Shown: one piece after another, positions 27,085 to 47,350 of the stretch
Layout: the number at the start of each line of letters is the position of its first letter
Numbering within the stretch: position 1 is the first letter of the stretch
Assembly: GCA_016929515.1 (NCBI GenBank)
Contig: JAFGIR010000016.1
Span: 26,390 to 90,389 of the forward strand
Origin: Pirellulales bacterium
Lineage (GTDB): Bacteria; Planctomycetota; Planctomycetia; Pirellulales; Thermoguttaceae
Direction of reading: 5' to 3'
Length of the DNA stretch: 64,000 nt
The notes under the pieces: model-generated
What the model was told of the DNA's origin: nothing
Databases searched by the model: none
Seen by the model: only the letters and a program-made list of their open reading frames with translations
Made by a program: the position numbers and the translations under genes

Positions 27085-27134
27085 TTTTTATGACGAGCAG
27101 ATACAAGACTGCTTTTCCGCAGGATGAAATAGCC

Positions 27135-28370: not shown

Positions 28371-28385
28371 GCCAATCTTGTCCCA

Positions 28386-29336
28386 ATGATGGTCATATCT
28401 CCCGAGCAAGAAATCATGATCGATCAGGCGAATGAACTTCGGCAACTCATTCGGCAACAGACCGAGCAGTTGACCAGAGCGGCGAGCACCCGACCGAGAA
28501 TCATCGCCGTTACCGGCGGCAAAGGCGGCGTCGGCACCACCACGGTCGCGACCCATCTGGCCATCGCAATGTCGCGTCAATCCGATCGCGTGCTACTGGT
28601 CGATGCCGATCCCGATCGGGCTGACGTGGCCACGCTGTGCGGGCTCGCGACGGACTACGATTTGGCTGATCTGGTCGAAGCGCGCCGAACGCTCGATGAA
28701 GTGATTGCGCCGGGACCCAACGGAATCTTGGTGCTCACCGGCGCGGGACGTGCTGCAGCCACCGAGCCGTCAACCGATCGTTTCCATCAGCGGTGGATTC
28801 GAGCCGCACGCGAGGCGGAAGAGCCTTTTGACTGTGTGGTCGTCGACACGGGTAACCGCTCGGCGCGCTCGGTCAAGATGCTTTGGGAAGCGTCTGATCT
28901 GGTGCTCTTGGTGACTACAATCGAACTGCCCTCGATCATCGACACCTACGCTTCGATCAAGACATTGGCCAAGCGAACCTCTCCGCCGGCGATCCACACC
29001 CTGATTAATCGAGTTACCGAGACGGCGGTCGCCTACGACGCGCACGGGCGGCTTGCGCGAGCGGTTTGGCGATTCCTGGGCTTTCATTTAGATAGCGCCG
29101 GACACGTGATGGTCGGACAAGACCTATCGGCAAACTTGGCCGATCAGGATCTTGCGTCATCGGAATCGCTGTGGGCACGAGAATTCAACCAACTGGCACG
29201 GACCATGCGGATCGCCTTGCGCGGGGCGGAAGGGAGAGATAGGTGTATCTTCGCCGAAAGGTCTACGGCATGCTTCGCTCAGAATTTGCCGGTCCCCTTG
29301 TTGCCACCGGAAGCCAATCCGGGAACAGCCGTCTGA
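28386..29336 (+). CDS. flhG: MinD/ParA-type ATPase FlhG (FleN/YlxH-like) with non-canonical P-loop
   Basis: It has IAVTGGKGGVGTTTVATHLA plus VLLVDAD. It sits between flhF and fliA, the conserved flhG slot. Confidence 0.8.
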   Translation: MMVISPEQEIMIDQANELRQLIRQQTEQLTRAASTRPRIIAVTGGKGGVGTTTVATHLAIAMSRQSDRVLLVDADPDRADVATLCGLATDYDLADLVEARRTLDEVIAPGPNGILVLTGAGRAAATEPSTDRFHQRWIRAAREAEEPFDCVVVDTGNRSARSVKMLWEASDLVLLVTTIELPSIIDTYASIKTLAKRTSPPAIHTLINRVTETAVAYDAHGRLARAVWRFLGFHLDSAGHVMVGQDLSANLADQDLASSESLWAREFNQLARTMRIALRGAEGRDRCIFAERSTACFAQNLPVPLLPPEANPGTAV

Positions 29337-29770
29337 TCGGCCACCTGACGAGAAACCAAGAAAACCCGGAGCTATGACGGAAGAATGACTCAACCCGGGA
29401 CAATCGGCGTCCGATAGAGTGACCACCACCAATAGGCACTTTGCCGCTAAACTACATAAATCACGTCAGCTTTGAGCTATCGAGACCCTCAACGCCGTGT
29501 ATCAGATGCAAAGATTCGAGCGGGGACAGTGACGTTGGAACAACGTGGCGAGATGAGCCACGGGGCACCGTCTCGTGGTTCACCAAGCCCCTTTTGCTGC
29601 AAAGACACGATAGAAGCGATGCAGCCCGAGCGCCACGCGTCGCGTATCAAGGATTATCGGATCGGGAGGGTGCCGCCCGCCAAGGCCTTGTTCGCCGCGC
29701 GAGGTGAGCCAAAGCGGACCGCACGCTCTTGATCCCCTGGCTGCCGAAGAGCATGATCACGGAGGATTGC

Positions 29771-30553
29771 ATGGCAACCACTTTTGTATCCGAGGACGTC
29801 GAACAGCTTTGGGTCGAGTTCAAGAAGGATACGACGAATCAGGAACTGCGCAATCGGCTCATCGAAATCTACTTGCCCTTGGTCAAGTATAACGGTGAAC
29901 GGATTTGGGCTCGGCTGCCGGACGGCGTCGAGTTGGACGATCTGATTTCGGCCGGCGTCTTTGGGCTGATGGACGCGATCGACGCTTTTGATCTGTTGCG
30001 CGGGGTGAAATTTGAGACTTATTGCGTTCCTCGAATCCGTGGCGCAATGCTCGACGAACTCCGCACGATGGATTGGGTGCCCCGATTGGTCCGTTCGAAG
30101 GCCAGCAAACTCAACGAAGCCATGAAAACGCTTCAGGCCCAGTTGGGTCGCATGCCGAACGAAAATGAGTTGGCTCAGCACATGAACGTTACCTTACCCG
30201 AAATCGAAAAAATGCTGCTCGATGCCAACGCGGTCAGCCTGATCAGCTTGAACAAAAAATGGTATGAGACAGATAGCTACAAGGACGTCCGCGAAATTGA
30301 TATTCTCGAGGACAAGAAGGGCGAGGATCCCACGCGACGCGTCCAGAAGGCCGATCTCATGCGACTCGTGACCAAAGGCCTCAACCGCAACGAACGGCTT
30401 ATCATCATCCTCTATTACTATGAAGAGCTAACGATGAAGGAAATCGGTGCCACGCTGCGCTTGAGCGAAAGCCGCGTCAGCCAGATGCATAGCTCGATTG
30501 TCCAGCGACTTCAGGAACAACTCGGCCGACGGCGCCCCGAGTTCGGCGGGTAG
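29771..30553 (+). CDS. fliA: flagellar sigma factor FliA (sigma-28 family)
   Basis: Region 2 is LRNRLIEIYLPLVKYNGERI...GVFGLMDAIDAFD. Region 3 is present. Region 4 is ERLIIILYYYEELTMKEIGATLRLSESRVSQMHS. The ATG at 29771 is preceded by GGAGGA (29761-29766). Confidence 0.9.
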   Translation: MATTFVSEDVEQLWVEFKKDTTNQELRNRLIEIYLPLVKYNGERIWARLPDGVELDDLISAGVFGLMDAIDAFDLLRGVKFETYCVPRIRGAMLDELRTMDWVPRLVRSKASKLNEAMKTLQAQLGRMPNENELAQHMNVTLPEIEKMLLDANAVSLISLNKKWYETDSYKDVREIDILEDKKGEDPTRRVQKADLMRLVTKGLNRNERLIIILYYYEELTMKEIGATLRLSESRVSQMHSSIVQRLQEQLGRRRPEFGG

Positions 30554-33184: not shown

Positions 33185-34870
33185 TTAATCCTTCTTCTTT
33201 GCCTTGGGGCAACCTTTCTTTGCCGCATCCTTGTGATGAGCCGCGAAGGCTGCCTTCAGTTCTTTCTCGGTCAGTTGGCCGTCGGCGTCCGTGTCGATTT
33301 TGCTAAAACGCTCCTTCATGCTTTCGGGCACTTCATCACGACCGAGCGTACCATTTCCGTCCTTGTCGACTTTCTTGAATCGAGCGGCCATGACAGCCTT
33401 GATCTTCTCGCGGTCGATCTTGCCGGGTTTCTTGCCGGCCTTCTTGCCCTTCATGCCGTGGTGCATGCCAGGACCTTTCATGCCACCCGCTCGGGCAGCG
33501 TGAAATCGCTTGACCATCGAGACCAAGGCCACCTTGGCTTCCTGCTTGCTGATCGCCTTGTCGTCGTCCTTGTCAACCTTTTTGAGGATGCGGACAAAGC
33601 ACTCCTTGTGCGCAACGGCAGCTTCCTTGGCATCAACCTTGCCGTCCTTGTTGGCGTCGATCTTGTCGAAGACCTTGTTGGCGCCCATCATGATCCGCCC
33701 AACAATGGCGACATTCGGACGTTGCGGACTACCCTTGCCGGGACCCTTCATGCCAGATCCGCCCATGCCGGGCCGCTTGGCGGGCTTCATCCACGGGTGT
33801 CCGCCGGGGCTCTTCATGCCGGGACCACGCGTGCCCGGGCCGCCACGCATCGCAAGCGCCTTGGGATAACCCTTGCCGGGACCCATGGCCGGACGACCGG
33901 GACCACGCGTGCCCGGGCCGTGTTTGCCGTGCACGCCGAGACCGCGCATCCCAGGTTGTAGTTTGCCGCCCTCGAGTTGATACATGGCCAAATGATACTG
34001 GGCCAGATGGTACAACGCCTCGCGATTCGGACCACGCATGCCTGGGCCCTTCTTGCCATGGCCACGCTGACCAGGACCACGCATCGCCAACGCCTTGGGG
34101 TGACCCTTGCCAGGCCCCTTCATACCGAAGCCCTCCTTGCCATGGCCACGCTGACCAGGACCACGCATCGCCAACGCCTTGGGGTGACCTTTGCCAGGCC
34201 CCTTCATACCGGGGCCCTTCTTGCCATGGCCACCTTTGCCAGGGCCGAGCATGGCATGATCGGGACCGCCGCAGTGCTTTTTCATTTGAGCGTGCAGTTT
34301 TTGCATGCCCTGCTTGAATTCGTCCAAACTCAGTTGGTTGTTGCCATCCTTGTCGAGCCGCTTGAAAATTTGCTCGGGATTGGGCTTCTTGCCCTTGCCT
34401 TTCATGCCGGGCGCCTCGGAGCCGCGCCGGGCCAATTTCGCCATGCCAGGCTTGCCCTTGTTGGCAGACCACCAGACGTGCGCCGGCGCGGCTTTCGCGT
34501 CGCGGTCACGTCCCGGGTGTCCTTCATGATGCTCACGGTTGCCCACCTTCGGACCGTCGGGTCGGTGCCGACCCGGTGCTCCGAGGCTCTTCCGCGACGC
34601 CTTCAGTTGCGACAGCTTCAGTTCGTCGAGCGAGATTTTCTTGTCGCCGTTCTTGTCGACGCGCTCGAGCAGTCTTCCGAAATGCTCCTTCATCGGGCCG
34701 GGCATTTCGTCGAGAGTGATTTGGCCGTCGTTGTTGGCGTCCAGACGCTTGAAGAAGCCTTCGGGACCAGGCCGCGCCATCGGTGGACGTTTGGCTTCCT
34801 CGGCCATCAAGAGCGACGGCAGCAGCACGATCGCCAGGGCAATCGTCAGAATGGGGAGTGGTCGATACAT
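33185..34870 (-). CDS. secreted multi-EF-hand calcium-binding protein with Gly/Pro/Lys-rich repeat core
   Basis: The signal peptide is MYRPLPILTIALAIVLLPSLLMA. There are seven DxDxDG-type loops: DANNDGQITLDE, DKNGDKKISLDE, DKDGNNQLSLDE, DANKDGKVDAKE, DKDDDKAISKQE, DKDGNGTLGRDE and DTDADGQLTEKE. Confidence 0.85.
   Translation of the reverse strand: MYRPLPILTIALAIVLLPSLLMAEEAKRPPMARPGPEGFFKRLDANNDGQITLDEMPGPMKEHFGRLLERVDKNGDKKISLDELKLSQLKASRKSLGAPGRHRPDGPKVGNREHHEGHPGRDRDAKAAPAHVWWSANKGKPGMAKLARRGSEAPGMKGKGKKPNPEQIFKRLDKDGNNQLSLDEFKQGMQKLHAQMKKHCGGPDHAMLGPGKGGHGKKGPGMKGPGKGHPKALAMRGPGQRGHGKEGFGMKGPGKGHPKALAMRGPGQRGHGKKGPGMRGPNREALYHLAQYHLAMYQLEGGKLQPGMRGLGVHGKHGPGTRGPGRPAMGPGKGYPKALAMRGGPGTRGPGMKSPGGHPWMKPAKRPGMGGSGMKGPGKGSPQRPNVAIVGRIMMGANKVFDKIDANKDGKVDAKEAAVAHKECFVRILKKVDKDDDKAISKQEAKVALVSMVKRFHAARAGGMKGPGMHHGMKGKKAGKKPGKIDREKIKAVMAARFKKVDKDGNGTLGRDEVPESMKERFSKIDTDADGQLTEKELKAAFAAHHKDAAKKGCPKAKKKD
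34052..34245. repeat. 84-bp tandem repeat (2.3 copies) inside the EF-hand gene
   Basis: Units 34052-34135 and 34136-34219 differ at 4 of 84 positions, and a third partial unit follows. Each encodes the 28-aa unit GPGKGHPKALAMRGPGQRGHGK(E/K)G(F/P)GMK. Confidence 0.85.
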
Positions 34871-35730
34871 GTTCCTTTTCTCCTAATGCGGGAACAGAAT
34901 AGGGGGACCAGTCGTGCGCGCTAGCGCGTAGACAGCCAGCGAATCACCTTCATAAACCGCGTGATCGCTCAGGAGTGTCGATTAATTCCAAAGGAATCGT
35001 CAGCTCTAGTCTGTTTGGGGGGATCTATTTAATCTGTAGTAGCAAAGTAAGTAAATTGGGAGACTTGGCGTACATTCTCGTGGCCATTTTCTCGCCGACA
35101 ATAGCCTGGAGCGACGGTTTCGTCCCAGACATAACACAAGACTTTGCCAATGTTGTCCGCCCCCCGGCTAGCCCCTATAATCCACCGATTTTCGCCAACG
35201 AACTCTTCTTACTGAAGATGCGTATAGTAGTCCGGCGGCTGGCTCATCAGGTTTTCCGCCTTGGAGAACAGGCCACCTGATGACACAATAGACCGGTGGC
35301 AGAGGATGTTGCAGCGAAGCCCCATCGTCGTGTTGCCGATTGTCGACAAGGTCGACCAAGAACAACCGACCTGGAGTGATTTTCGAAGACGTGTGTGTGT
35401 TGCAGTGGCCACCTTGAATACGATTGACAACGTTGGCACTCTTGCCCGAGACTGTCACAGACGTTACAAGTCATTAAGAAACCAGTATTTGATACGACTC
35501 GGGCATTAGAGAATTGTTTGGACCGAAATCACGGGGTGGTCGATGATCCGGATGGGCCGAGTTCACTTGCACCCGTCAGGAACTGCCCACGATAGATTTG
35601 CGCGGTGCTCCTTAGCCGCCGGTGAACAATCGCATAGCGAACGAAAAGGTATGATTTCGAGACGTTGAAGGAGGCCGGGCATTCGTTCCGGCGCGTCTTG
35701 CCCACTGCGATCCTTGGGAGAAACAAAGGG

Positions 35731-36009
35731 ATGCATATTCACGGCCCGTCTCATTTGCACGGCCCTCAGCCGGTCGGCGCGCCACACTCATCTCGCGTGG
35801 CGAAGTCCGACACGACGACCTTTTCGGGTCCGATTCAAGACGAACTCCAGATTTCCGATGCGGCTCGACTAATTGAACAAGTCAAGCAGACTCCTGACAT
35901 CCGTCAAGATCGCGTTGACGCCATCCGGCAGCAGATTGCAGCCGGCACTTACGAGACGCCCGAGAAGCTTGACATTGCGTTGGATCGGCTTCTGGACGAG
36001 ATCGGTTAG
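35731..36009 (+). CDS. flgM: anti-sigma-28 factor FlgM
   Basis: 92 aa. The C-terminal segment IRQDRVDAIRQQIAAGTYETPEKLDIALDRLLDEI is the FlgM signature. The start is taken at ATG 35731 (MHIHG). Confidence 0.75.
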   Translation: MHIHGPSHLHGPQPVGAPHSSRVAKSDTTTFSGPIQDELQISDAARLIEQVKQTPDIRQDRVDAIRQQIAAGTYETPEKLDIALDRLLDEIG

Positions 36010-36018
36010 CGCCTTGGC

Positions 36019-36498
36019 ATGTCAAAGGACTACTCACTTCGCACCGTGAAAGTCCCGCTGTCGCCGCGAGAACGGTTTGCCCAGTTTCTGCAGGCCAAGG
36101 GCAAACGAATGACCCGGCAACGACAGCTCATCGTCGATGTTGTCTTCAGCCATCATGATCACTTCGATGCCGACGAACTGATGGCTCATCTCCAGGGGTT
36201 GCTCCGCCGGCGCGAGTTGAGCCGGCCGACCGTCTACCGCACGCTCGGTGAACTGACCGAGGCAGGCCTGATTCGCAAGATGGTGCTCTCTGGCCGCAGT
36301 GTCTACGAACATCAATACGGCTACCCACGGCACGACCATCTGCACTGCGAGGTCTGCAACCGGCTGATCGAATTCCACAGCCCCGAGTTGGAACGGCTCG
36401 TCCGCGAAGCGGCCGTGCAGCACGAATTCCAGGTGAACAGCCACCGGACATTCGTCACGGGTATCTGCGCCGACTGCCAGCGAAGGGAATCGCGGTAG
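36019..36498 (+). CDS. fur: Fur-family metalloregulator
   Basis: The winged-helix block is RMTRQRQLIVDVVFSHHDHFDADEL...SRPTVYRTLGELTEAGLI. The metal sites are HDHLHCEVCNRLIEF and GICADC. Confidence 0.85.
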   Translation: MSKDYSLRTVKVPLSPRERFAQFLQAKGKRMTRQRQLIVDVVFSHHDHFDADELMAHLQGLLRRRELSRPTVYRTLGELTEAGLIRKMVLSGRSVYEHQYGYPRHDHLHCEVCNRLIEFHSPELERLVREAAVQHEFQVNSHRTFVTGICADCQRRESR

Positions 36499-36508
36499 TC
36501 CGATTAGC

Positions 36509-38083
36509 CTACGCCTCTTCGAGCATCTTCCATCCCAGCGCGTCGGCCAGGGTGAAGACGGGCTCCTTCAGGTCGCCGTAGTAGGTCACCCGGTGCCAGC
36601 CCCATTTGTCCCACTGGCGGAGCAACTTCTCCAGGTCGCCGACCGGCTCCACGGCCAGTTTCGTCCGGCACGCCCGATCGTCGTCCACGTTGGCCATCGC
36701 CTTGCCCTGGTGGAAAGCGATCGCCTTTCGGGCAGGGTTGAATTTGACCGTGGTCGTCATGTAACCCAGCGGGCAGAGTGATCGAACCGCCGCCCCCCGG
36801 CGATCCTCGCTGTGCGTGAGGATCTCGAATGGGCTGGTCTCACCCTCCGGCCCGAACACCTTGTTCGACGCAACGCAATGGGCGTAAATGATCTGCCGCG
36901 TCGATGTATCGATGACCGGATCGGAAATGAAGCCGGGCCGTCCTCGTGTCAAGGCCGTCATGGCGATCATCGTGGCGGTCGACAGCAGATCGCACTCGCA
37001 CGCGCCAATGAGCCCCTCGTTATTCAACTCGTGGAAACCCATACACGGATAGGCGTGGATATGTCCTCCATAGAACCCGCCGAGGCAATTGATCGTGATC
37101 GCATTCGCGCCGTGCCGCTTGAGGACTTCCTTTTGGGCTAGGTACATGGCGGCCGACTGTTTAAGTGTTTCTGGTGAGACATTTTCGATTCTTCGAGCCG
37201 TCTTCTGCCACTTTTCGGCTATTTCGATCGACTGATCCCTGTCGGCCGACTGCCAGGCTGCGTTCAATTCGGCGTACGGCACGTCGACCACTTCAATGCC
37301 CATCTCTTTCTTGATGGCACTCCAGAGTCCCCCGTGTCTTCCACCCACCGCGAGGATCTTGCCCCGCTTCATTGCGGCCAAGCAGTCTTTCATATCGAGC
37401 GTCGCGACGGGATCGGGCAGCGAGGAAAGATCTCCGGGTGCGGGCGTTCGTTGCCGGCGCACCCGTTCGGTCGCCTCGACGAATTGTCCCATCGCACCTC
37501 CCCTGGCAACGATTTCAAAACACTGGACGGCCGCCGACAAGTCGTCCGGATCGGACGAGGCGACATAGCCAACGTTGGGTCGCTTCTGCCGAAGCATTTT
37601 GGCCGTGTATAGAAGGAACCCGCCGCTGCCGCCATAGGTGAAGTCGGCAAAAAGCGTCGGTTTACCCGAGGTCACCACCGTCTGCACCACGCGGGGCCAG
37701 TTGTTCATTTGCATGACTAAATAGCCGTCGACCGGCGACGATTTGTCTTGAGCGAGAATCTTCTTGGCCTGCTCAGACCCATCGGCCATCGACGTGACGA
37801 ACTCGAAACCAGGACACGCCGCCTTCAATTGTGTCTCGATGCCGGCCATGACCGGCCTAAAATCGTACCCCACGTGTGGCCAGGTCGGACGTGGTTGGAC
37901 CTTGTCATACAAGCTGTAGATGATTCGGATCCGCGGCTTGTCAGCGGCCACGGCTGCCCGAGCCAGACGATCAGTGGCCAGCAAGCCCGTCACCCCGGCG
38001 CAGGCCGCGCAGCCGGCTGCCAGGAATCGCCGCCGGCTCAGAGGACAACAGGAACACGAAGAAACTAATTCGGAGTGTTTCAT
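36509..38083 (-). CDS. Tat-signal, L-fucose/L-arabinose-isomerase-like (COG2407-like) protein, paralog 1 (524 aa)
   Basis: The N-terminus is MKHSELVSSCSCCPLSRRRFLAAGCAACAGVTGLLATDRLARA|A. The core AYPCMGFHELNNEGLIGACECDLLSTATM...GRPGFISDPVID...WGWHRVTYYGD resembles the metal-site layout of FucI/AraA-like isomerases. The ATG at 38083 follows AGGAAA. Confidence 0.8.
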   Translation of the reverse strand: MKHSELVSSCSCCPLSRRRFLAAGCAACAGVTGLLATDRLARAAVAADKPRIRIIYSLYDKVQPRPTWPHVGYDFRPVMAGIETQLKAACPGFEFVTSMADGSEQAKKILAQDKSSPVDGYLVMQMNNWPRVVQTVVTSGKPTLFADFTYGGSGGFLLYTAKMLRQKRPNVGYVASSDPDDLSAAVQCFEIVARGGAMGQFVEATERVRRQRTPAPGDLSSLPDPVATLDMKDCLAAMKRGKILAVGGRHGGLWSAIKKEMGIEVVDVPYAELNAAWQSADRDQSIEIAEKWQKTARRIENVSPETLKQSAAMYLAQKEVLKRHGANAITINCLGGFYGGHIHAYPCMGFHELNNEGLIGACECDLLSTATMIAMTALTRGRPGFISDPVIDTSTRQIIYAHCVASNKVFGPEGETSPFEILTHSEDRRGAAVRSLCPLGYMTTTVKFNPARKAIAFHQGKAMANVDDDRACRTKLAVEPVGDLEKLLRQWDKWGWHRVTYYGDLKEPVFTLADALGWKMLEEA

Positions 38084-38341
38084 CACAGGTTTCCTTTTTG
38101 TGAGGACCGGTAACAAAGGGGGGCTACAAACATGGTCACCACCGGCTCGCGCCACCTCCAACGGTTTCTGGCCGTGGAAGGCCCTTACGAACCGACGGGT
38201 GGTTAGGGAATAAACGCGATGAGGCCCCGGTTTTCGGTCCTCCGGGCACCGCTTCGCCATGGCCTGATCACCGTCAGGATGTTCCACAAGGCTTTCTGCT
38301 TGCTTTCTCGTATCGTCTTGTGAGCGTTTCCACGACCGCGA

Positions 38342-39916
38342 CTACGCCTCTTCGAGCACTTTCCAACCCAGTGCGTCGGCCAGAGCGTAGACGGGCTCTT
38401 TCAGATCGCCATAGTAGGTCACTCGGTGCCACCCCCATTGGTCCCACTGGCCAAACAACTTCTCGATATCGCCGACCGGCTCAACCGCCAGTTTCGTGCG
38501 ACACGCCCGATCGTCGTCCACGTTCTCCACCGCCTTGCCTTGGTGAAAGAGAATGGTCTTCCACTCCGGACCGAACTCGACGGTCGTGGTCATATAGCCC
38601 GTCGGAAAGATCGACCGAACCGCAGCGCCCTTGCGGTCTTCGCTGTGGGTGAGGATTTCGAACGGGTTGGACGGGCCCTCCGGTCCGAATACCCTGTTCG
38701 AGGCGACACAATGGGCATAGATGATTTGCCGCTTCGCCGCGTCGATCACCGGATCGGAGATGAAACCGGGACGGCCCCCGGCAAGTGCCGTCATCGCAAC
38801 CATGGTCGAGGCCGACCGTACGTCGCACTCGCACCCGCCGATCATCCCCTGGTTATTCAACTCATGAAACCCCAAGCAAGGATACGCGTGCAGATGACCT
38901 CCGTAGAACCCACCGAGGCAGTGGATCGTGATCCCGGTGGCGTCGTGCCGCTTGAGCAGCTCTTTTTCGGCCAAGTACATCGCGGCCGACGCTTCGAGCG
39001 TCTCGCGCGAGACGTCTTCGATACGCCGGGCCGCCTGCTGCCAGCGGTCGGCGATTTCCTGCGATTGGTCCTTGTCGGCTGCCCGCCAGGCTGCGTCGAG
39101 CTCGGCGAACGAAACCTGGACGACCTGAATACCCATTTGCTCTTCGATCGCCTGCCAGAGCCGTCCTCGCCCACGACCCACGGCCAGAATCTTGCCTCGT
39201 TTCATCGCGGCAAGGCAGTCTTTCGGCTCCAGCGCGCGCGGTGCATCGGGCTTGCACGAGAGATCGCCGGGTGCGGGCGTGCGCTCGCGGCGAGTCTGGG
39301 CGACCGCCGCGGCGAACTGCTCCCTGGAACCGCCTTGCTCGACGACGTGGAAACACTTGACCGCCGCGACCAGATCATCCAAGTCGGAGGACGAGACAAA
39401 ACCGAGTCGCGGCTGCGTCTCGCGCAACGATCGCGCCGTGTTGCTGAGAAATCGGCCCGTACCGCCATACGGGAAATCGGCGTAAAGCGTCGGCTTGCCC
39501 GCGGCAAGCACGGTCCGTACCGCGCGGGTCCGGTTGTTCAATTGATAGACCAGATAGCCGTCGACGGGCAACGCCTTGTCCTGTTCGAGGATTTTCTTGG
39601 CCTGCTCGGCGCCATTGACCGTCGCGGTGACGAACTCGAACTCCGGGCAATCCTCCTTGAGCTTGGCGTCGATTCGGGCGATGACCGGCCGAAAGTCAAA
39701 CCCAACGTTCGGCCAGTCCGGGCGGACCTGCTTCAGATCCTGGAACGCATAGATGACCCGAATCCGAGTCTTCTTCGTCTTCTCGGCCGCTCGGGCAAGG
39801 CTGCCCGCCCTCAGAAGACCGGTCGCCCCGGCACACGCCGCGCAGCTGGCTTCAAGAAACCGACGGCGGTTCACCGAACAACAAGCACACATGGAAGAAG
39901 ACTCGGAGTGTTTCAT
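38342..39916 (-). CDS. Tat-signal isomerase-like protein, paralog 2 (524 aa)
   Basis: The N-terminus is MKHSESSSMCACCSVNRRRFLEASCAACAGATGLLRAGSLARA|A. It has the same core motifs as paralog 1. The ATG at 39916 lies 6 nt after GGAAG; ATG 39919 is an alternative. Confidence 0.8.
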   Translation of the reverse strand: MKHSESSSMCACCSVNRRRFLEASCAACAGATGLLRAGSLARAAEKTKKTRIRVIYAFQDLKQVRPDWPNVGFDFRPVIARIDAKLKEDCPEFEFVTATVNGAEQAKKILEQDKALPVDGYLVYQLNNRTRAVRTVLAAGKPTLYADFPYGGTGRFLSNTARSLRETQPRLGFVSSSDLDDLVAAVKCFHVVEQGGSREQFAAAVAQTRRERTPAPGDLSCKPDAPRALEPKDCLAAMKRGKILAVGRGRGRLWQAIEEQMGIQVVQVSFAELDAAWRAADKDQSQEIADRWQQAARRIEDVSRETLEASAAMYLAEKELLKRHDATGITIHCLGGFYGGHLHAYPCLGFHELNNQGMIGGCECDVRSASTMVAMTALAGGRPGFISDPVIDAAKRQIIYAHCVASNRVFGPEGPSNPFEILTHSEDRKGAAVRSIFPTGYMTTTVEFGPEWKTILFHQGKAVENVDDDRACRTKLAVEPVGDIEKLFGQWDQWGWHRVTYYGDLKEPVYALADALGWKVLEEA

Positions 39917-40076
39917 CATGATCTTCCTTTGATTGAGGTGGGCAGGACGCATGCCGCGAAATGGGAGGAATATGGGTTGATGCCGCAAGAAACAGTAGGG
40001 CCGATCGGCGCGACTCGGCCAAGGCAAAACAAAGCGGTGTGCGGTTTCCTTGTTGTAAACGCTCTCGACGACGTGA

Positions 40077-41651
40077 CTACGCCTCCTCCAATACCTTCCA
40101 CCCCAACGCGTCGGCCAGGGCGAAGACAGGCTCTTTCAGGTCACCGTAGTAGGTCACGCGGTGCCAGCCCCACTGGTCCCACTGGCGGAAGAGTTTCTCG
40201 ATGTCACCCACCGGTTCGACCGCCAGCTTCGTGCGACACGCCCGATCGTCGTCGACGTTCTCCACGGCCTTGCCTTGGTGAAAGAGAATGGCCTTCCGCT
40301 CGGAACTGAACTTGACCGTCGTCGTCATGTAGCCCACGGGGAAGATCGAGCGGACTGCGGCACCGTTGCGATCTTCGCTGTGCGTGAGAATCTCGAATGG
40401 GTTTGTTTCGCCTTGTGGTCCGAAGACCCGGTTCGATGCGACGCAATGGGCGTAAATAATTTGCCGCTTGGCGGTGTCAACGACCGGATCGGAGATGAAC
40501 CCCGGCCGACCCCCGGTCATAGCCGTCATGGCCACCATCGTCGCAGTAGCTCGCAAGTCGCACTCGCACGCCCCGATGAGGCCTCGGTTGTTCAATTCGT
40601 GGAAACCCAGGCACGGATAGGCGTGGATATGCCCTCCGTAAAAGCCTCCGAGGCAATTGATCGTGATCGCGTTGGCGCCGTGCTTCTTGAGCACCTCTTT
40701 TTCGGCTAGATACATGGCCGCCGACTGTTCCAGCGTCTCGCGCGAAACATCCTCGATCTTTGCAGCCGTTTTCTGCCAGCGGTCGGCGATTTCTCGCGAC
40801 TGGTCCTTGTCGGCCGCCTCCCAAGCCGCGTTCAACTCGGCAAAGGGCACCTCGACGATTTCGATGCCCATCTGCTCGGTGACGGCCGGACCGATCTTCG
40901 GAAAAAAGCGACCCACCGTCAGAATCTTGCTCTGCTTCATCGCCGTGAGGCAGTCTTTTGTATCGAGCGTCTTGAGCGGGTCGGGTTTGCAGATCAAGTC
41001 ACTCGACGCGGGCGTCCCGTTCTTGCGCACCCGCTCGGTGGCCGCGACAAAGTCCGCAACCGAGCCGCCTTTCTTGATCAGTTCAAAACAACCCACCGCC
41101 GCGACCAGATCGTCCGGGTTCGACGAGGCGACGAAACCCAAGTTCGGCGTGTTGCGACGCAGCAAGCTCGCCGTGTAAACGAGGAATCCGCCGCTGCCAC
41201 CGAATTGAAAGTCGGCGTAGAGCGTCGGCTTGCCGGTGGTAACCACAGGCTGCACCACGTGATTCCAGCAGTTCATCTGATAAACGAGGTAGCCGTCGAT
41301 CTTGGCCGACTTGTCCTGTTCGAGGATCTCCTGGGTCTGCTTCGCGCCGGTGGCCATCGACGTGACGAACTCGATGTTTGGGCATCCCCTCTTCAACACG
41401 GCCTCGATTTGCGCCATGACGGGCCGGAAATCGAACCCAACGTTCGGCCAGTCCGCGCTCAGCTGTGTGGGGCCATGCAGAGCGTAGATGATCCGGATCC
41501 GCGTCTTATCCGTTTTCTCGGCTGCCCGAGCAAGGCCGCTGCCCGCCATAAGCCCCGTCGCGCCGGCACACGCCGCGCAACCGGCAGCAAGAAATCGACG
41601 CCGGCTGACCGGACAACAGGCGCACGCGGAAAGGCTCTCAAGGCGATTCAT
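40077..41651 (-). CDS. Tat-signal isomerase-like protein, paralog 3 (524 aa)
   Basis: The N-terminus is MNRLESLSACACCPVSRRRFLAAGCAACAGATGLMAGSGLARA|A. The C-terminus is nearly identical to paralog 2. Confidence 0.8.
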   Translation of the reverse strand: MNRLESLSACACCPVSRRRFLAAGCAACAGATGLMAGSGLARAAEKTDKTRIRIIYALHGPTQLSADWPNVGFDFRPVMAQIEAVLKRGCPNIEFVTSMATGAKQTQEILEQDKSAKIDGYLVYQMNCWNHVVQPVVTTGKPTLYADFQFGGSGGFLVYTASLLRRNTPNLGFVASSNPDDLVAAVGCFELIKKGGSVADFVAATERVRKNGTPASSDLICKPDPLKTLDTKDCLTAMKQSKILTVGRFFPKIGPAVTEQMGIEIVEVPFAELNAAWEAADKDQSREIADRWQKTAAKIEDVSRETLEQSAAMYLAEKEVLKKHGANAITINCLGGFYGGHIHAYPCLGFHELNNRGLIGACECDLRATATMVAMTAMTGGRPGFISDPVVDTAKRQIIYAHCVASNRVFGPQGETNPFEILTHSEDRNGAAVRSIFPVGYMTTTVKFSSERKAILFHQGKAVENVDDDRACRTKLAVEPVGDIEKLFRQWDQWGWHRVTYYGDLKEPVFALADALGWKVLEEA

Positions 41652-41920
41652 GATCGTTCTCCTCTAATCGCGGCGGGAAGGAGGAGGCAGAAGCGCGACA
41701 AGTAGGTGGGAAACTCGTGCCGCGCAGGAAACGAGAGTCTGCCACCTCCAGTTTCATCCTGTCATTCTACAGGTCTTTCCTGTTCGTTTCAAACGTTTCT
41801 CCATCTCCCGCGCGCACGGCACTCAAGGCCAACAGTGGCAAGCCTTTGTGGAAAGTCTCGGGGGCCAAAACGCCTTTTGCGGTGAATCAAAACCGGCGGC
41901 CACTCGGCTTTCTGACGCGG

Positions 41921-42862
41921 TCAGTCAACAACGGTCTTCTCGTCCGAGTCAAGAGCAAACGTCTCGACCGATGAAAACCGCCGGCGGATGGTTCGTTGAA
42001 ACTCGACGCTTGGGTAGCCGAGAATCAGGGCCATGGCCGGCGTGTTTCCCTCGGGCACCCCCAGCTTCCGGCACAGTGCCTTGTTGCGCTGGATGATCGG
42101 CGCGGCGCCGCCGATCATCGTCGTGCCCAGCCCGAGCGACTCGGCCGCCAGCATCGCGTAGGTGCATGCGATCATCGCATCGGGCACGTCGGTATAGGGC
42201 GAGTGGTGGAAAACAATCACGGCCGGCGCGTCGTAGAAGACCGCGTCGCGGCCCGCGCGGTGGTGCTGGACGTAAGTTTCAGCCAATGGGCGAATGAAAT
42301 CGCGAAACTGCTCGTATTTGGCCCGGCTCATCATCGGACGCATCAACGTCAGAACCCAGGGCCTGAAGAACTTCAGGAATCCCTCGTATCCTTCGATGAT
42401 CTGGTCGGCAAGCTCCCGCACGGCCTTCCGCCCGCGGACTACCACGCAGCCGACGTCCCACGGCGGAATGCCCATTGGGGCCGACGAGGCCATTTCGACT
42501 ACTCGATCGAGAAGCTCCTGGTCGACCGCCTGGTCGGTGAAATGGCGAACGCTGCGGCGACCGCGCATCAGCGCGGCAAGCGCGTCGGCCGTGGCCTTCT
42601 CGCCTGATTGCGGCGCCGGCAGCAGATCGTCCGGCGAGATGCCGCGACCGCTTACTCGAATCGCTCCCTCGGGGCAGACCATCATGCAGTGGCCGCAGGC
42701 GATGCAACCGAAAGGGCTGTCGGCGTGGACCACGATCCGCCCGTCGTCCAGGCTCAACACCTCGCCCGCGCAGACCTCGGCACACTGCCCACACTGGATG
42801 CAAGCGGCTTCGTCTACCCGAACGGTGCCCGCCTCGCGATAAAGACTATGCATGATGGCCAT
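41921..42862 (-). CDS. 2x[4Fe-4S] ferredoxin domain fused to nitroreductase-family domain
   Basis: It has CIQCGQCAEVC and CIACGHCMMVCP, followed by RRSVRHFTDQAVDQELLDRVVEMASSAPMG and the nitroreductase fold. Confidence 0.85.
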   Translation of the reverse strand: MAIMHSLYREAGTVRVDEAACIQCGQCAEVCAGEVLSLDDGRIVVHADSPFGCIACGHCMMVCPEGAIRVSGRGISPDDLLPAPQSGEKATADALAALMRGRRSVRHFTDQAVDQELLDRVVEMASSAPMGIPPWDVGCVVVRGRKAVRELADQIIEGYEGFLKFFRPWVLTLMRPMMSRAKYEQFRDFIRPLAETYVQHHRAGRDAVFYDAPAVIVFHHSPYTDVPDAMIACTYAMLAAESLGLGTTMIGGAAPIIQRNKALCRKLGVPEGNTPAMALILGYPSVEFQRTIRRRFSSVETFALDSDEKTVVD

Positions 42863-43237: not shown

Positions 43238-43250
43238 AAACACGTCGCCG

Positions 43251-43460
43251 GCAGGGTGGCTGGGGCATAGCGGAGCGGTGCCCCGGAAGTCCGAGAACTG
43301 GGCCATGGCCCAGCGGCGGCCCAGGGCTCCTGCCGCCCGGCGACCGTGGTCCGGCCCTTCGACCTGATCATGCATGAGACGTCCCTCGTGGATCATGGTA
43401 GTCTGTATACCATGGGCACACAGGTTTTTTCAAGTCAACTTTTTGGCCACCCCTCTTTGT
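43251..43460 (+). repeat. dispersed repeat unit A, copy 1
   Basis: It starts with gcagggtggctggggcatagcggagcggtgcccc and ends around tttttggccacccc. It aligns with 44983-45155 (about 70% by eye, with a ~40-nt indel). Confidence 0.6.
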
Positions 43461-43601
43461 TGCCGCGTGCCCGACGACGAACGGGAACCACGGATGGACA
43501 CGAATCGACACAAGATGGAGGGAAAAACTGGAGAGGACGTACGCCGGGCCGGTGGTCGAGCGACGAAGATTGGCCACGAAAAACACGAAGACGGTAGGTG
43601 G

Positions 43602-43739
43602 CCTTGATGGATTGGCCGGACAGATCTCGGTGTGCGACTGCTTGCGGAGTTTCTCGTGGCGTTGAATCGGTGCGACGGCACTGCTTGCCGGAGACCATTA
43701 ACCAGGAGATAATCGGCAAGCAGTGCGGCCCCGTCTCGG
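43602..43739 (+). repeat. dispersed repeat unit B, copy 1 (contains 13-bp-stem hairpin)
   Basis: About 85-90% identical by eye to 44845-44983. The internal hairpin is GCACTGCTTGCCG-(23 nt)-CGGCAAGCAGTGC. Confidence 0.7.
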
Positions 43740-43925: not shown

Positions 43926-44828
43926 GTGGCAACGATGGATCAATCTCACAAGTACTGTAAGAAGTGTCAAGAACAGTCTCTCCATGCACGACCGGGAACT
44001 AATCATCTTCTCCATGCTTTCTTGACCTTTTTTCTCTGCGGATTCTGGTTGCCGGTTTGGATTCTGGCTTCCATCCGAATTGGTGGCTGGCGTTGTCAGA
44101 CTTGTGGCTATGGAGGTAGCACACTTCTGCGGTTTGGTCCACCGGTACTTGCTCTTGGTGGCTTCCTTCTTGTTCTATCGATCGTTGTGGCAAGCCTTGA
44201 TATGTCAAGCCCCGTGGCTGCAACTACGCCCGGCCGCGATTCTTCCAGCGACACCGCGGCACCCGATGTGGCTACCGCCAAGCCGGTATACGACGTTCCT
44301 TCCCTCATCGGCAAGACCATTGACGAAATCCGAAGCACACTTGGCAAACCTCTGGACTCGGAAATTGAGCCGTCGGAACTACAACTGGATACCGGCGTTG
44401 ACCAATGGGAAAATGTCTTTGAGAAAAACGGTTGTCAGTTGCTGGTAACCTTTGACCCACGGACTCGGAAAGTGGTGGATTTCTTCCTCGAAGGGAACAA
44501 ACAAGAATCCGTGTTGCGGATTGGGCAGTTGTCAGCCGATGCGACGGACTATCGGATTGAGTATGTCAAGGCGATTCGTGATCCTTCGGCTATCACTGGA
44601 GTCAAGGCTATTCCAACACCCAAGGTAGTGGTCCGAGAGCCGGCACCCAAGGTGCCAACAGTGAGAACGTGGACCGATGCTACCGGCCGTTACAAGACGG
44701 AAGGCACGTTTGCTGGGGTTGAATCCGGAAAGGTCAAGTTGATAAAGGCGGACGGAACGTCTATCAACTTGCCGCTTGAGAAACTGTCGCAAGAAGACAG
44801 GCAATGGATAAAGAACCAAGGTAACTAG
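43926..44828 (+). CDS. membrane protein with N-terminal Zn-ribbon/TM region and C-terminal SHD1 (SLA1-homology) domain
   Basis: It has YCKKCQEQ...CQTCG flanking TM segments. The C-terminal RTWTDATGRYKTEGTFAGVESGKVKLIKADGTSINLPLEKLSQEDRQWI is the bacterial SHD1 signature. The start is GTG 43926 or ATG 43935. It is visibly AT-richer than neighbouring genes. Confidence 0.8.
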   Translation: MATMDQSHKYCKKCQEQSLHARPGTNHLLHAFLTFFLCGFWLPVWILASIRIGGWRCQTCGYGGSTLLRFGPPVLALGGFLLVLSIVVASLDMSSPVAATTPGRDSSSDTAAPDVATAKPVYDVPSLIGKTIDEIRSTLGKPLDSEIEPSELQLDTGVDQWENVFEKNGCQLLVTFDPRTRKVVDFFLEGNKQESVLRIGQLSADATDYRIEYVKAIRDPSAITGVKAIPTPKVVVREPAPKVPTVRTWTDATGRYKTEGTFAGVESGKVKLIKADGTSINLPLEKLSQEDRQWIKNQGN

Positions 44829-44844
44829 CTGGGCGCGCGGGTGC

Positions 44845-44983
44845 CCTTGATTGATTGGCCGTACAAATCTCGGTGTGCCACCGCTTGCGGAAGCTCCTCG
44901 TGGTGTTGAATCAGAGCGACGGCACAGCTTGCCGGAGACCATTGGCCAGGAGATAATCTGCAAGCAGTGCGGCCCAGTCTCGG
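44845..44983 (+). repeat. dispersed repeat unit B, copy 2
   Basis: See 43602-43739. It is in the same orientation and lies immediately 3' of the SHD1 gene. Confidence 0.7.
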
Positions 44984-45155
44984 CAGGGTGGCTGGGGCAT
45001 AGCGTAGCGGTGCCCCAGAGCGTCACCGCCCGGCAACCGTGGTTCGACGTTTCGACCTGACCAACCATGGGAAATCCCTCGCCGATCCTAGGTCCATGCA
45101 TACCACAGCCCAATCGGATTTTCCAGTCGAGTTTTTGGCCACCCCCCTTCTTTCA
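44983..45155 (+). repeat. dispersed repeat unit A, copy 2
   Basis: It runs from gcagggtggctggggcatagcgtagcggtgcccc to gtttttggccacccccc, contiguous with B copy 2. Confidence 0.6.
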
Positions 45156-45442: not shown

Positions 45443-47200
45443 TTACTCCTTCGGCTTGTCGATCTCCGTCGGCTCTCGATAGTTGATCCCCGCGGCGTCG
45501 AGACGTTTGAAATGGGTCCGCAGGCGCCGGAAGAACTCGGCGTAGTCGCGGCGCTGGTCGGGCTCCGGCGACCAGGCGACCTCGCATAGGGCGCACGCGC
45601 GGGGGTAGGTCTGGTAAAGGAGATGAGGGAAGCTCTTCATCGCCTCGCCCCACAGCGCGCCTTCGACGCCGACGACCAGATCGGGATTGACCCGCTTGAT
45701 GTCGTCGGGCAGCGGCTCGAATTCGTAGGCCCGGCGGAGCGTGATGATACGGCCGACGCCCTTCGGCTCGTTTTGTTTCTCGGGCGACTGCCAGTAGTCA
45801 AAATAGCAGTGCGTGAACGGGGCCATCACGAGAAGCTGACCGTTGGCCGCGGCCTTTTGGATTTGTTCCTGGGCTTTGCGGTTCAAACGGTAGCACATGG
45901 CGATTGACCCGGGCTTGGCCCCGCTTTCAAGAATCTCATCCCAGCCGACGAGCGTGCGACCCTTCTTCTTGAGGTAGTCGGCCATGCGGCGGACGAAATA
46001 GCCGTGCAACTCGGCGACGCTCTTGAGTCCTTCGTCCTTCATCCGCTTGCGGCAGTGGTCGCATTTCTTCCAGTTCGTTTTCATGGATTCATCGGCGCCG
46101 ATGTGGATGTATTGGCTGGGAAAGACCTCCAGTATCTCGTCAAGGATGTTTTGCACGATCTCGTAGGTCGCTTCCCGGCCGGGACAGAGCTCGCCGCGGT
46201 CCGGCCCTGTCAAGTCAACCGTGCAGCCACACTCCGGGCAACCTCGCAGCAAACCGTCGGCGTGGCTCGGCATCTCGATCTCGGGCACGATCGTGACAAA
46301 ACGCTTCCGGGCAAAGGCGACCAGTGATTTCAGCTCGTCTTGCGTATAATAATGCCGAGCCAGGCGGTAATAGGTCTGGTTCTTCTCACGCTCCGGGTCG
46401 GCCGCGTTGAGCGCCTTCTGGGGAGTCAGGCTAGGATAGCGCCGCACTTCGACCGTCCAATTGCTGTCATCGGTGAAGTGGATCTGCAGTACGTTCAACT
46501 TGTGAAGCGCCAGGTAATCGACGTACTGCTTCAGCTCGTCGATCGTCCAGAAGTGCCGGGCCGGGTCGATCAGCAGCGCCCGCCATGCAAACCGGGGCTT
46601 GTCCCGGATCGTCGCACAAGGAACCACCAGTTTCTCGACGGGAAGCGTCTTCGAGACGTTCGGCTCGTCGGCCGGGCGCGGCGGAGGAATCGTCTGCCGA
46701 CCGCCCAACTTCCCTTCGACCATCGCCGGTGAGCGAAACGCCTCGGGCGGAGCGAGTTGCAGGAGCGTTATCCCGCCGTAAAACACGCCGGCCGCTTTCG
46801 GGGCGCGGATAACGGTGCCGTTGTCCGTCACCACAAGAGAATAGCCTTCCTCGCCCAGGGTTCGGTCGGCTCCGGCCGTCGTCATCAGGATGGCCCCGGG
46901 CACGGCGTCGGTCGCGCCGGTGGGCGCGGCCGTCACCTGCTCTCCGAGAGCCAGCGACAAACGACTTGCCAGGTAATCGGCCGCATCGGCCAGACGCGCG
47001 TCGCCCTTGGTGTAGAGGACTTTCGTCGCGGGCGTAATGGTGAACTCACCCGATTCGATTGCGATCTCGACCGGCCGCGGAACAAGCGCCGGTCCTTCGG
47101 CGGCAAGCGATGCCGATGCAAAACACGCAAGCGAAACGGCCAGACCGGCCAGCATCGCGGGAACGACCGTGCAACAAAGCGGGCGATTACGGATGGTCAT
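45443..47200 (-). CDS. beta-N-acetylhexosaminidase (GH20)
   Basis: It has LHKLNVLQIHFTDDSNW and YIHIGADE, with signal peptide CCTVVPAMLAGLAVSLACFASASLA. The ATG at 47200 is preceded by AGGAGA; the ORF is open to 47275. Confidence 0.9.
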   Translation of the reverse strand: MTIRNRPLCCTVVPAMLAGLAVSLACFASASLAAEGPALVPRPVEIAIESGEFTITPATKVLYTKGDARLADAADYLASRLSLALGEQVTAAPTGATDAVPGAILMTTAGADRTLGEEGYSLVVTDNGTVIRAPKAAGVFYGGITLLQLAPPEAFRSPAMVEGKLGGRQTIPPPRPADEPNVSKTLPVEKLVVPCATIRDKPRFAWRALLIDPARHFWTIDELKQYVDYLALHKLNVLQIHFTDDSNWTVEVRRYPSLTPQKALNAADPEREKNQTYYRLARHYYTQDELKSLVAFARKRFVTIVPEIEMPSHADGLLRGCPECGCTVDLTGPDRGELCPGREATYEIVQNILDEILEVFPSQYIHIGADESMKTNWKKCDHCRKRMKDEGLKSVAELHGYFVRRMADYLKKKGRTLVGWDEILESGAKPGSIAMCYRLNRKAQEQIQKAAANGQLLVMAPFTHCYFDYWQSPEKQNEPKGVGRIITLRRAYEFEPLPDDIKRVNPDLVVGVEGALWGEAMKSFPHLLYQTYPRACALCEVAWSPEPDQRRDYAEFFRRLRTHFKRLDAAGINYREPTEIDKPKE

Positions 47201-47350
47201 GACCGTCTCCTGAACAGGCGGGCGATTGGGCCGGCGTCCTCGTTTCAATCTCCCATCCGAACCCCGGCAAGTCAAGCTCCGACTTCAGATCTTCCCTTCC
47301 GACGCTCTCTGGGACGTCTGAGACGGGAATACACTACCGAATTGAAGCCT

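Follow-up and report, generated by a model that had tools for sequence, protein, structure and literature searches.

Introduction

The proteins described here have their closest counterparts among cytoplasmic sugar isomerases. L-Arabinose isomerase (AraA) and the L-fucose and D-arabinose isomerases (FucI, approximately 590 amino acids [aa]) are represented by solved structures. The sulfoquinovose isomerase SftI, which belongs to the sulfofructose transaldolase pathway, is approximately 443 aa long and is encoded in sulfoquinovose operons, is an aldose-ketose isomerase by experiment (PMC7491151). Here, we analyze a 64,000-nucleotide (nt) stretch of DNA from a Pirellulales bacterium (NCBI GenBank assembly GCA_016929515.1, contig JAFGIR010000016.1, positions 26,390 to 90,389 of the forward strand), which we refer to as the window, and in particular three tandem genes within it that encode paralogs A, B, and C. 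An original prediction, made from the sequence alone, described the three proteins as exported, isomerase-like enzymes and suggested that they may be functionally tied to a neighboring ferredoxin-nitroreductase gene and to an adjacent gene for a Fur-family regulator.

The three proteins have the fold of the arabinose and fucose isomerases, and each begins with a twin-arginine leader of a kind that is specific to their family. We consider it probable, though only by a modest degree, that A, B, and C are folded, metal-loaded aldose-ketose isomerases, probably oligomeric, which the twin-arginine translocation (Tat) pathway exports to the periplasm of a glycan-degrading bacterium.

The mature domain has the arabinose/fucose isomerase fold

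We generated an AlphaFold2 model of paralog A from an alignment of 38 sequences. The model had a predicted local distance difference test score (pLDDT) of 91.3 and a predicted template modeling score (pTM) of 0.87; residues 1 to 46 were disordered, with pLDDT of <50. Alternating beta and alpha elements extend up to residue 380, and residues 385 to 480 are all beta. When the model was compared with the PDB using Foldseek, the best 41 matches were all L-arabinose, D-arabinose, or L-fucose isomerases, with expect values (E) of 2.4e-18 to 1.2e-12 over approximately 525 aligned columns at 12 to 14% identity. The best match was AraA (E 2.4e-18, probability 1.0). Both the model and these matches conform to the three-domain architecture of the isomerases, in which two alpha/beta domains are combined with a C-terminal beta-barrel.

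The next-ranked Foldseek matches were partial, pairing the N-terminal domain of the model with periplasmic sugar-binding proteins (E of approximately 1e-4). Together with the lack of any pathway partner encoded nearby, these weak matches would fit proteins that descend from an isomerase but bind or sense sugars without catalysis. We regard this explanation as very unlikely, given that the full-length fold matches are enzymes, that the catalytic and metal residues are conserved over hundreds of diverse members, and that the identity of 64 to 79% observed across phyla spans the whole active-site region.

A search of the PDB with a single sequence returned nothing meaningful, and a profile was needed. 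The family profile matched the L-arabinose isomerases of E. coli and Geobacillus, with E ranging from 1.6e-5 (E. coli AraA) to 2e-4. Among curated models, the best match for A, B, and C was the NCBIfam model of SftI (NF048012; E 1.4e-11 to 3.9e-10). The family has no Pfam model of its own. Existing labels point in the same general direction, with distant relatives called "L-fucose isomerase-like protein" in IMG and a Bacteroides relative called "fucose isomerase" by NCBI. The profile and structure searches thus bear out the AraA/FucI isomerase fold of the mature domain, and no well-characterized periplasmic family displaces that assignment. A, B, and C fall outside AraA, FucI, and SftI as these families are curated; they belong to an uncharacterized branch of the same superfamily, which includes an exported clade with a family-specific leader. 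Judged by sequence profiles, the nearest characterized relative of this clade is SftI.

A putative metal site lies beside five invariant cysteines

Aligning the family with E. coli AraA using hhalign placed E363 on the ligand E306, H402 on H350, and S387-D388 on E333-D334. H497 pairs with a His of an SftI-like isomerase from Monoglobus and is the probable counterpart of AraA H450. We assessed conservation across 202 diverse members of the family, reaching down to approximately 27% identity. All four of E363, D388, H402, and H497 are kept in 182 of these members, and all five of the cysteines C333, C347, C362, C403, and C472 are kept in 193. The cysteines occupy, among other positions, the loop aligned with AraA F279, the residue preceding E363, and the residue following H402. 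Paralog B retains the E-D-H-H residues and all five cysteines.

All five are also present in a Bacteroides finegoldii protein annotated as "fucose isomerase." The Monoglobus protein reaches 115 bits across the full SftI profile, and two transketolase subunit genes adjoin its gene. In an hhalign comparison with the family, it aligned over 363 columns with a probability of 97.5%; the protein and the family have in common C333, P346-C347, C362-E363-x-D365, D388, H402-C403, and H497. The most economical reading of these residues and relatives is that the proteins would be metal-dependent isomerases with a putative metal site.

A different chemistry on the isomerase scaffold is an explanation that we consider unlikely but worth weighing with care. 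The five cysteines, possibly with the CxxC of the leader, would bind an iron-sulfur (Fe-S) cluster or a thiolate-bound metal assembled in the cytoplasm, and in the periplasm the proteins would, for example, dehydrate a sugar or carry out redox or sulfur-related chemistry on it. Cofactor assembly in the cytoplasm would explain the use of Tat, the substrates of which are frequently cofactor proteins. The near-invariance of the five cysteines, each beside an active-site element, and the family-specific CxxC ahead of the twin arginines, which is conserved at the protein level, are consistent with such a cofactor. However, four of the five cysteines are shared with the cytoplasmic SftI-like isomerase that adjoins transketolase genes, the spacing of the cysteines (13, 14, 40, and 68 residues) fits no known Fe-S motif, and the E/D/H/H metal site of the isomerases is wholly retained. 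In addition, SftI purified aerobically by its His tag behaves as a plain isomerase (PMC7491151).

A predicted Tat leader carries family-specific cysteines

The leaders of A, B, and C comprise residues 1 to 43 of each precursor (Table 1). Their uncharged, Ala/Gly-rich stretch is 22 residues long in A, 18 in C, and 13 in B, where it follows E22; its mean hydropathy is 1.45 to 1.76, and A-R-A occupies residues 41 to 43. Among the 120 close homologs that we compared, 116 have the RR.F motif, and A41-R-A43 followed by A44 is near-invariant. The curated Tat-signal models stay below their cutoffs in A, B, and C; among individual homologs, NCBI calls two (P0084 and P0331) Tat-signal proteins, and a third (P0387) carries the Tat-signal domain PF10518.

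Other relatives have no leader. These proteins, from Bathyarchaeia, Thermoprotei, Bacteroides, and others, are 427 to 452 aa long (median 437) and start exactly at the first beta strand, which corresponds to approximately residue 49 of the window proteins. Because the shorter relatives begin at this strand, the leader is an addition onto a cytoplasmic-type core. Tat-bearing and leaderless proteins are interleaved, with 21 of the former and 36 of the latter among full-length representatives at 50% identity, and 44 and 75, respectively, in a second clade. A glycan-binding domain of F5/8 type C forms the C terminus of one Tat-bearing relative. The twin-arginine leader named in the original prediction is upheld by the RR.F motif of the close homologs and by the start of the shorter relatives, and the predicted Tat export of A, B, and C is well supported by sequence logic.

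The assignment of the leader depends on correct N termini. We consider it extremely improbable that the N termini are mis-called and the proteins cytoplasmic, or else that the copies form a real unit with the nitroreductase and under the control of Fur. The genes are adjacent in the window and have the same neighbors in two close relatives (L005 and L026), as expected for such a unit. A mis-call is contradicted by the ribosome-binding site at each ATG, by the lack of any downstream in-frame start that would keep the first beta strand, and by the conservation of the leader as protein, with both Cys codons in use.

Between the paralogs, the ratio of nonsynonymous to synonymous substitution rates (Ka/Ks) of the leader is 0.21 to 0.32, and the leader is under purifying selection. 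Its cysteines are arranged as two CxxC motifs. Of the 116 homologs with RR, 104 have a CxxC located 2 to 4 residues ahead of the twin arginines, and 108 have a second CxxC within the hydrophobic stretch. The cysteines at these positions are encoded by either Cys codon, and the residues between them vary. Given this codon usage and the Ka/Ks of the leader, protein-level selection acts on the leader cysteines. In 1.46 Mb of sequence, comprising the window and related loci, all 78 occurrences of the pattern C..C.{0,6}RR.F belong to this family, and the CxxC ahead of the twin arginines recurs in deeply diverged Tat-bearing clades, though not in every one. Our literature searches found nothing on cysteines in the n-regions of Tat signals, nothing on exported fucose-isomerase-like proteins, and nothing relevant under COG2407. 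Nothing else in the locus is as novel as the family-specific CxxC leader.

The conservation of the leader could also indicate that it is not removed. An uncleaved leader would serve as an N-terminal anchor on the outer face of the cytoplasmic membrane, perhaps with a lipid anchor in some lineages. The leader Ka/Ks is unusually low for a cleaved signal, Cys residues within the hydrophobic stretch are conserved, and a lipobox-like LFQAC-S is found in Aminicenantes. We nevertheless think an anchor quite unlikely, as the near-invariant A41-R-A43/A44 is a standard signal peptidase I site, and an Ala/Gly-rich stretch of this hydropathy is typical of cleaved Tat signals and not of anchors.

We also evaluated C25 of the window proteins as a lipobox cysteine and rejected this reading, since just five uncharged residues lie ahead of it. 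The Aminicenantes homologs mentioned above (L061 and L073) have leaders that end in LFQAC|S at approximately residues 30 to 40; lipid anchoring may occur in some lineages.

A more speculative proposal joins the leader to its cargo, and we regard it as a long shot. The CxxC pairs of the leader, together with the cargo cysteines and the His/Glu site, would jointly coordinate a metal or cluster in the cytoplasmic precursor. As a built-in chaperone or plug, the leader would load the cofactor, block activity in the cytoplasm, and be freed to Tat only once the site is filled. Tat quality control would in this scheme be encoded by the cargo itself, and the mature protein would be a thiolate-metal enzyme with new chemistry on the isomerase scaffold.

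Three old copies are maintained by selection

The region consists of four co-directional genes on the (-) strand, namely the ferredoxin-nitroreductase gene and the three homologous open reading frames (ORFs). A, B, and C are each 1,575 nt long from the conserved ATG, corresponding to 524 codons plus a stop codon, and each conserved ATG is preceded by the ribosome-binding site AAAGGA or AGAGGAG. The paralogs align end to end without gaps at 69 to 72% aa identity and 72 to 73% nt identity. These coordinates and alignments agree with the earlier description of three co-directional, homologous ORFs of equal length. The spacing also agrees, with 160 nt from A to B and 258 nt from B to C, except that the gap between the nitroreductase gene and A, previously given as 270 nt, is 269 nt. 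The motifs quoted previously are likewise present: SRRRFL in A and C (NRRRFL in B), ARA followed by A, ACECD, and WGWHRV, with B reading GGCECD in place of ACECD. The near-identical C termini are a property of the pair A and B. The equal length of 524 codons is not special, because most close homologs are 520 to 525 aa long.

Table 1. Coordinates of the three paralogs, their leaders, and the flanking genes in the window
Feature	Coordinates	Strand	Description
Paralog A	40077-41651	(-)	524-aa precursor, most canonical copy; database entry P0001 (Pirellulales metagenome-assembled genome [MAG])
Paralog B	38342-39916	(-)	Most derived copy; 71% identity to A, gapless
Paralog C	36509-38083	(-)	72% identity to A, gapless; database entry P0015
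Leader A, residues 1-43	41523-41651	(-)	MNRLESLSACACCPVSRRRFLAAGCAACAGATGLMAGSGLARA; C10-A-C-C13, S16-R-R-R-F-L, C25-A-A-C28, A41-R-A43
Leader B, residues 1-43	39788-39916	(-)	
Leader C, residues 1-43	37955-38083	(-)	
Ferredoxin-nitroreductase fusion	41921-42862	(-)	2x[4Fe-4S], cytoplasmic; Pfam Nitroreductase E 8.4e-21, Fer4_7 E 1.6e-9; neighboring gene
Fur-family regulator	36019-36498	(+)	Pfam FUR E 7e-24; convergent with C; neighboring gene

A and C are identical to their database entries, which come from a Pirellulales MAG, and B equals a third entry except for one extra N-terminal Met. We rejected the longer ORFs found by mechanical calling (561 and 592 aa, with upstream TTG or GTG starts), which are unsupported given the length of the homologs. 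Long stop-free antisense ORFs of up to 627 aa overlie A, B, and C (for example, 38426-40309 on the (+) strand). Naive calling of the longest ORF took the antisense frame in 23 related loci, making it a possible source of mis-annotation.

We estimated pairwise synonymous divergence (Ks) between the paralogs at 1.06 to 1.25, which is near saturation, with Ka/Ks of 0.16 to 0.19; all three copies are maintained by selection. A neighbor-joining tree of 125 sequences separates A, B, and C into three subclades, each of which also holds proteins from other genomes, and all three subclades lie inside one 20-member clade. C, for example, groups with the orthologs P0114 and P0048 and with copy 2 of locus L026, and other contigs carry two paralog types together. 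Because Ks is near saturation and the subclades are separate and bear orthologs, the expansion is old and confined to a sublineage of the Pirellulales. The three-fold amplification put forward in the original prediction is an old, lineage-specific expansion, and just 3 of 84 related loci are multi-copy. Recent gene conversion was rejected, as sliding-window nucleotide and third-position identity rises mildly at the 3' ends without identical tracts.

The copies differ in how far they depart from the family. Of the 182 columns with conservation of 95% or more, A deviates at 2, C at 6, and B at 14; the family averages 1.9 such deviations and reaches 8 at most. The pattern of divergence is compatible with subfunctionalization of the copies, and the divergence of B, together with its charged leader, may reflect neofunctionalization or altered export. 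The substitutions of B at conserved positions include W129R, Q134R, G155R, and Y159N in the N-terminal domain.

The family is widespread and has no conserved gene partner

A word-indexed protein search yielded 4,528 significant proteins among 8,000 scored candidates, and the family comprises >4,500 clusters at 90% identity. The best 120 proteins of this search, at 67 to 79% identity, are nearly all unnamed or called "hypothetical protein." In an exhaustive search of representatives at 50% identity, 1,680 clusters matched at E of ≤1e-3 and 211 at E of ≤1e-30. With one genome scanned per species, matching stretches numbered at least 575; the top 80 all come from MAGs and match at 64 to 79% identity. 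These 80 belong to Planctomycetota, Hydrogenedentota, Kiritimatiellae/Verrucomicrobiota, Aminicenantes/Acidobacteriota, and Anaerolineales (Chloroflexi). In total, the family is spread over at least six phyla. Cytoplasmic-type sugar enzymes that are exported by Tat are already familiar from these phyla.

To examine gene neighborhoods, we used a sample of 84 related loci, in which the nitroreductase-ferredoxin and Fur proteins were sought with tblastn. The nitroreductase-ferredoxin gene is adjacent in 1 of the 84 loci (L026) and the Fur gene in 1 (L005), and both loci come from close relatives. Extra family copies occur in just 3 of the 84 loci. All-against-all clustering of the 1,051 ORFs from these loci revealed no conserved neighbor. 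The commonest neighboring families are Gfo/Idh/MocA (14 loci) and sulfatase (8 loci), at scattered distances and orientations, and the best immediate neighbor recurs in 5 of the 84 loci, all of them close relatives. No genes for sulfofructose transaldolase, transketolase, or sulfolactaldehyde enzymes lie beside A, B, or C in the window or beside the family genes in the 84 related loci. The cytoplasmic relatives, by comparison, occur in sugar-utilization loci with AraC, GH1, a Gfo/Idh/MocA gene, an SSF symporter, or transketolase.

We therefore rejected both partnerships after the tblastn searches, each neighbor being adjacent once in 84 loci, and the functional ties suggested in the original prediction do not stand. 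The nitroreductase-ferredoxin protein has no signal peptide. The Fur gene is convergent with C (their stop codons are 10 nt apart) and lies 9 nt 3' of flgM. A scan for Fur boxes upstream of A, B, and C gave best scores of 9 to 10 matches of 19, none of them Fur-box-like. An alignment of the upstream regions of the three copies shows the ribosome-binding region alone in common. Promoter and terminator scans returned counts near the expectation from shuffled sequence, and an Rfam scan of the window gave no matches. The nitroreductase and Fur neighbors, like the tandem triplication, are local accidents of the lineage.

The gene for the anti-sigma-28 factor, flgM, and the Fur gene lie on the same strand (35665-36498, (+)), an unusual pairing whose arrangement suggests co-transcription. 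Upstream of them is a flagellar cluster with flhA, flhF, an flhG-like ATPase gene, and a gene for a fliA-like sigma factor (24925-30553).

Other features of the window

A GH20 beta-hexosaminidase gene (45443-47275, (-)), whose product has an N-terminal signal-like segment, is located 2.6 kb from the nitroreductase gene and is the only clear gene for a glycan-degrading enzyme near the paralogs. On the other side of the locus, 33185-34870 (-) encodes a protein of 561 aa. It has a hydrophobic segment at its N terminus and several calcium-binding EF-hand motifs, and its interior contains long repeats rich in Gly, Pro, and Lys, of the type GPGMKGPGKGHPKALAMRGPGQRGHGK.

Direct repeats of approximately 145 nt, 88 to 89% identical (43597-43739 and 44840-44983), flank an SHD1-domain gene at 43926-44828. 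Shorter repeated pieces are found at 43249-43287 and 44981-45019 and at 43427-43457 and 45119-45149. The approximately 145-nt repeat, which may be an intergenic repeat element, occurs only twice in the window and matches nothing in Rfam.

Discussion

If A, B, and C are exported isomerases, as we favor, the following sequence of events would apply. The precursor would fold in the cytoplasm, probably oligomerize, and bind a divalent metal there. The folded precursor would then be exported by the Tat pathway via its SRRRFL leader, which would be cut after the A-R-A site. In the periplasm, the mature enzyme would convert an aldose to a ketose and back, with the metal assisting the transfer of a proton between C1 and C2. 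E363 and D388 would serve as acid and base, and E363, D388, H402, and H497 would hold the metal.

Several observations weigh against this reading. Identity to the solved isomerases is only 12 to 14%, with global TM-scores of approximately 0.5, and the curated models are matched far below their cutoffs: 39 to 44 bits versus 700 for SftI (NF048012), over profile positions of approximately 147 to 329 of 443; 15.8 to 16.7 bits versus 622 for AraA (NF002795; E 2e-3); and 16.6 to 16.9 bits versus 24 for the Pfam domain AraA_central (PF24856) in A and B, with C unmatched. The last of these cutoffs is exceeded in a relative (P0176). The Pfam domains of FucI (Fucose_iso_N1, N2, and C) matched none of A, B, and C at E of up to 1. 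At the active site, a Ser occupies the position of the AraA ligand E333, so that retention of the adjacent Asp (D388) entails a one-residue shift of the ligand, and the five invariant cysteines beside active-site elements are foreign to the AraA/FucI mechanism. These cysteines and the cysteine-bearing leader could indicate a different cofactor or a different chemistry. With respect to export, the leader of B carries the charged residues E22 and R36 inside its hydrophobic stretch, the Tat-signal model TIGR01409 is matched by C only and at 12.1 bits versus a cutoff of 16.7, and the model PF10518 is unmatched in A, B, and C. Finally, genomic context that would point to a substrate is absent in the window and in the 84 related loci.

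A family that is this large and strongly conserved and is still annotated as "hypothetical protein" represents a gap in enzyme annotation and a target for discovery. Its lineages are major degraders of glycans in sediments and bioreactors. If the proteins are periplasmic isomerases, sugars would be isomerized outside the cytoplasm, a step that is missing from models of polysaccharide use. The cysteine-bearing Tat leader, for its part, could reveal a coupling between signal peptide and cargo.

How the paralogs compare with known exported proteins is a matter of logic rather than of fold. Periplasmic sugar oxidoreductases of the Gfo/Idh/MocA type and the Mn protein MncA are folded metal or cofactor enzymes that are exported by Tat; the window proteins would follow the same logic with an unrelated fold. 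The leaders of the Gfo/Idh/MocA-type enzymes and of MncA are not known to have a conserved CxxC ahead of the twin arginines.

The isomerases provide the closer comparison. AraA (PDB 4r1p, 2ajt, and 4f2d) is the best structural match, and its E306, H350, and probably H450 correspond to E363, H402, and H497. It differs from the window proteins in being cytoplasmic, in lacking four of the five cysteines, and in having E333 where they have Ser. FucI and D-arabinose isomerase (PDB 1fui and 3a9r) have the same fold (Foldseek E 9e-15 to 1e-12), and the Glu/Asp/His metal triad of FucI (1fui) resembles E363/D388/H497. In contrast to the window proteins, FucI is longer and cytoplasmic, and there are no fucose-utilization genes near the window copies. 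SftI (NF048012; Bacillus aryabhattai, PMC7491151) shares the presumed aldose-ketose isomerization, and cytoplasmic relatives of the family match its profile at E of up to 1e-16 over nearly its whole length. The window proteins, however, are not SftI orthologs. They add to the SftI plan a 43-residue Tat leader, a longer N-terminal half, and the invariant C472-R473-x-K475 and H424, and they are encoded without the operon partners that accompany SftI.

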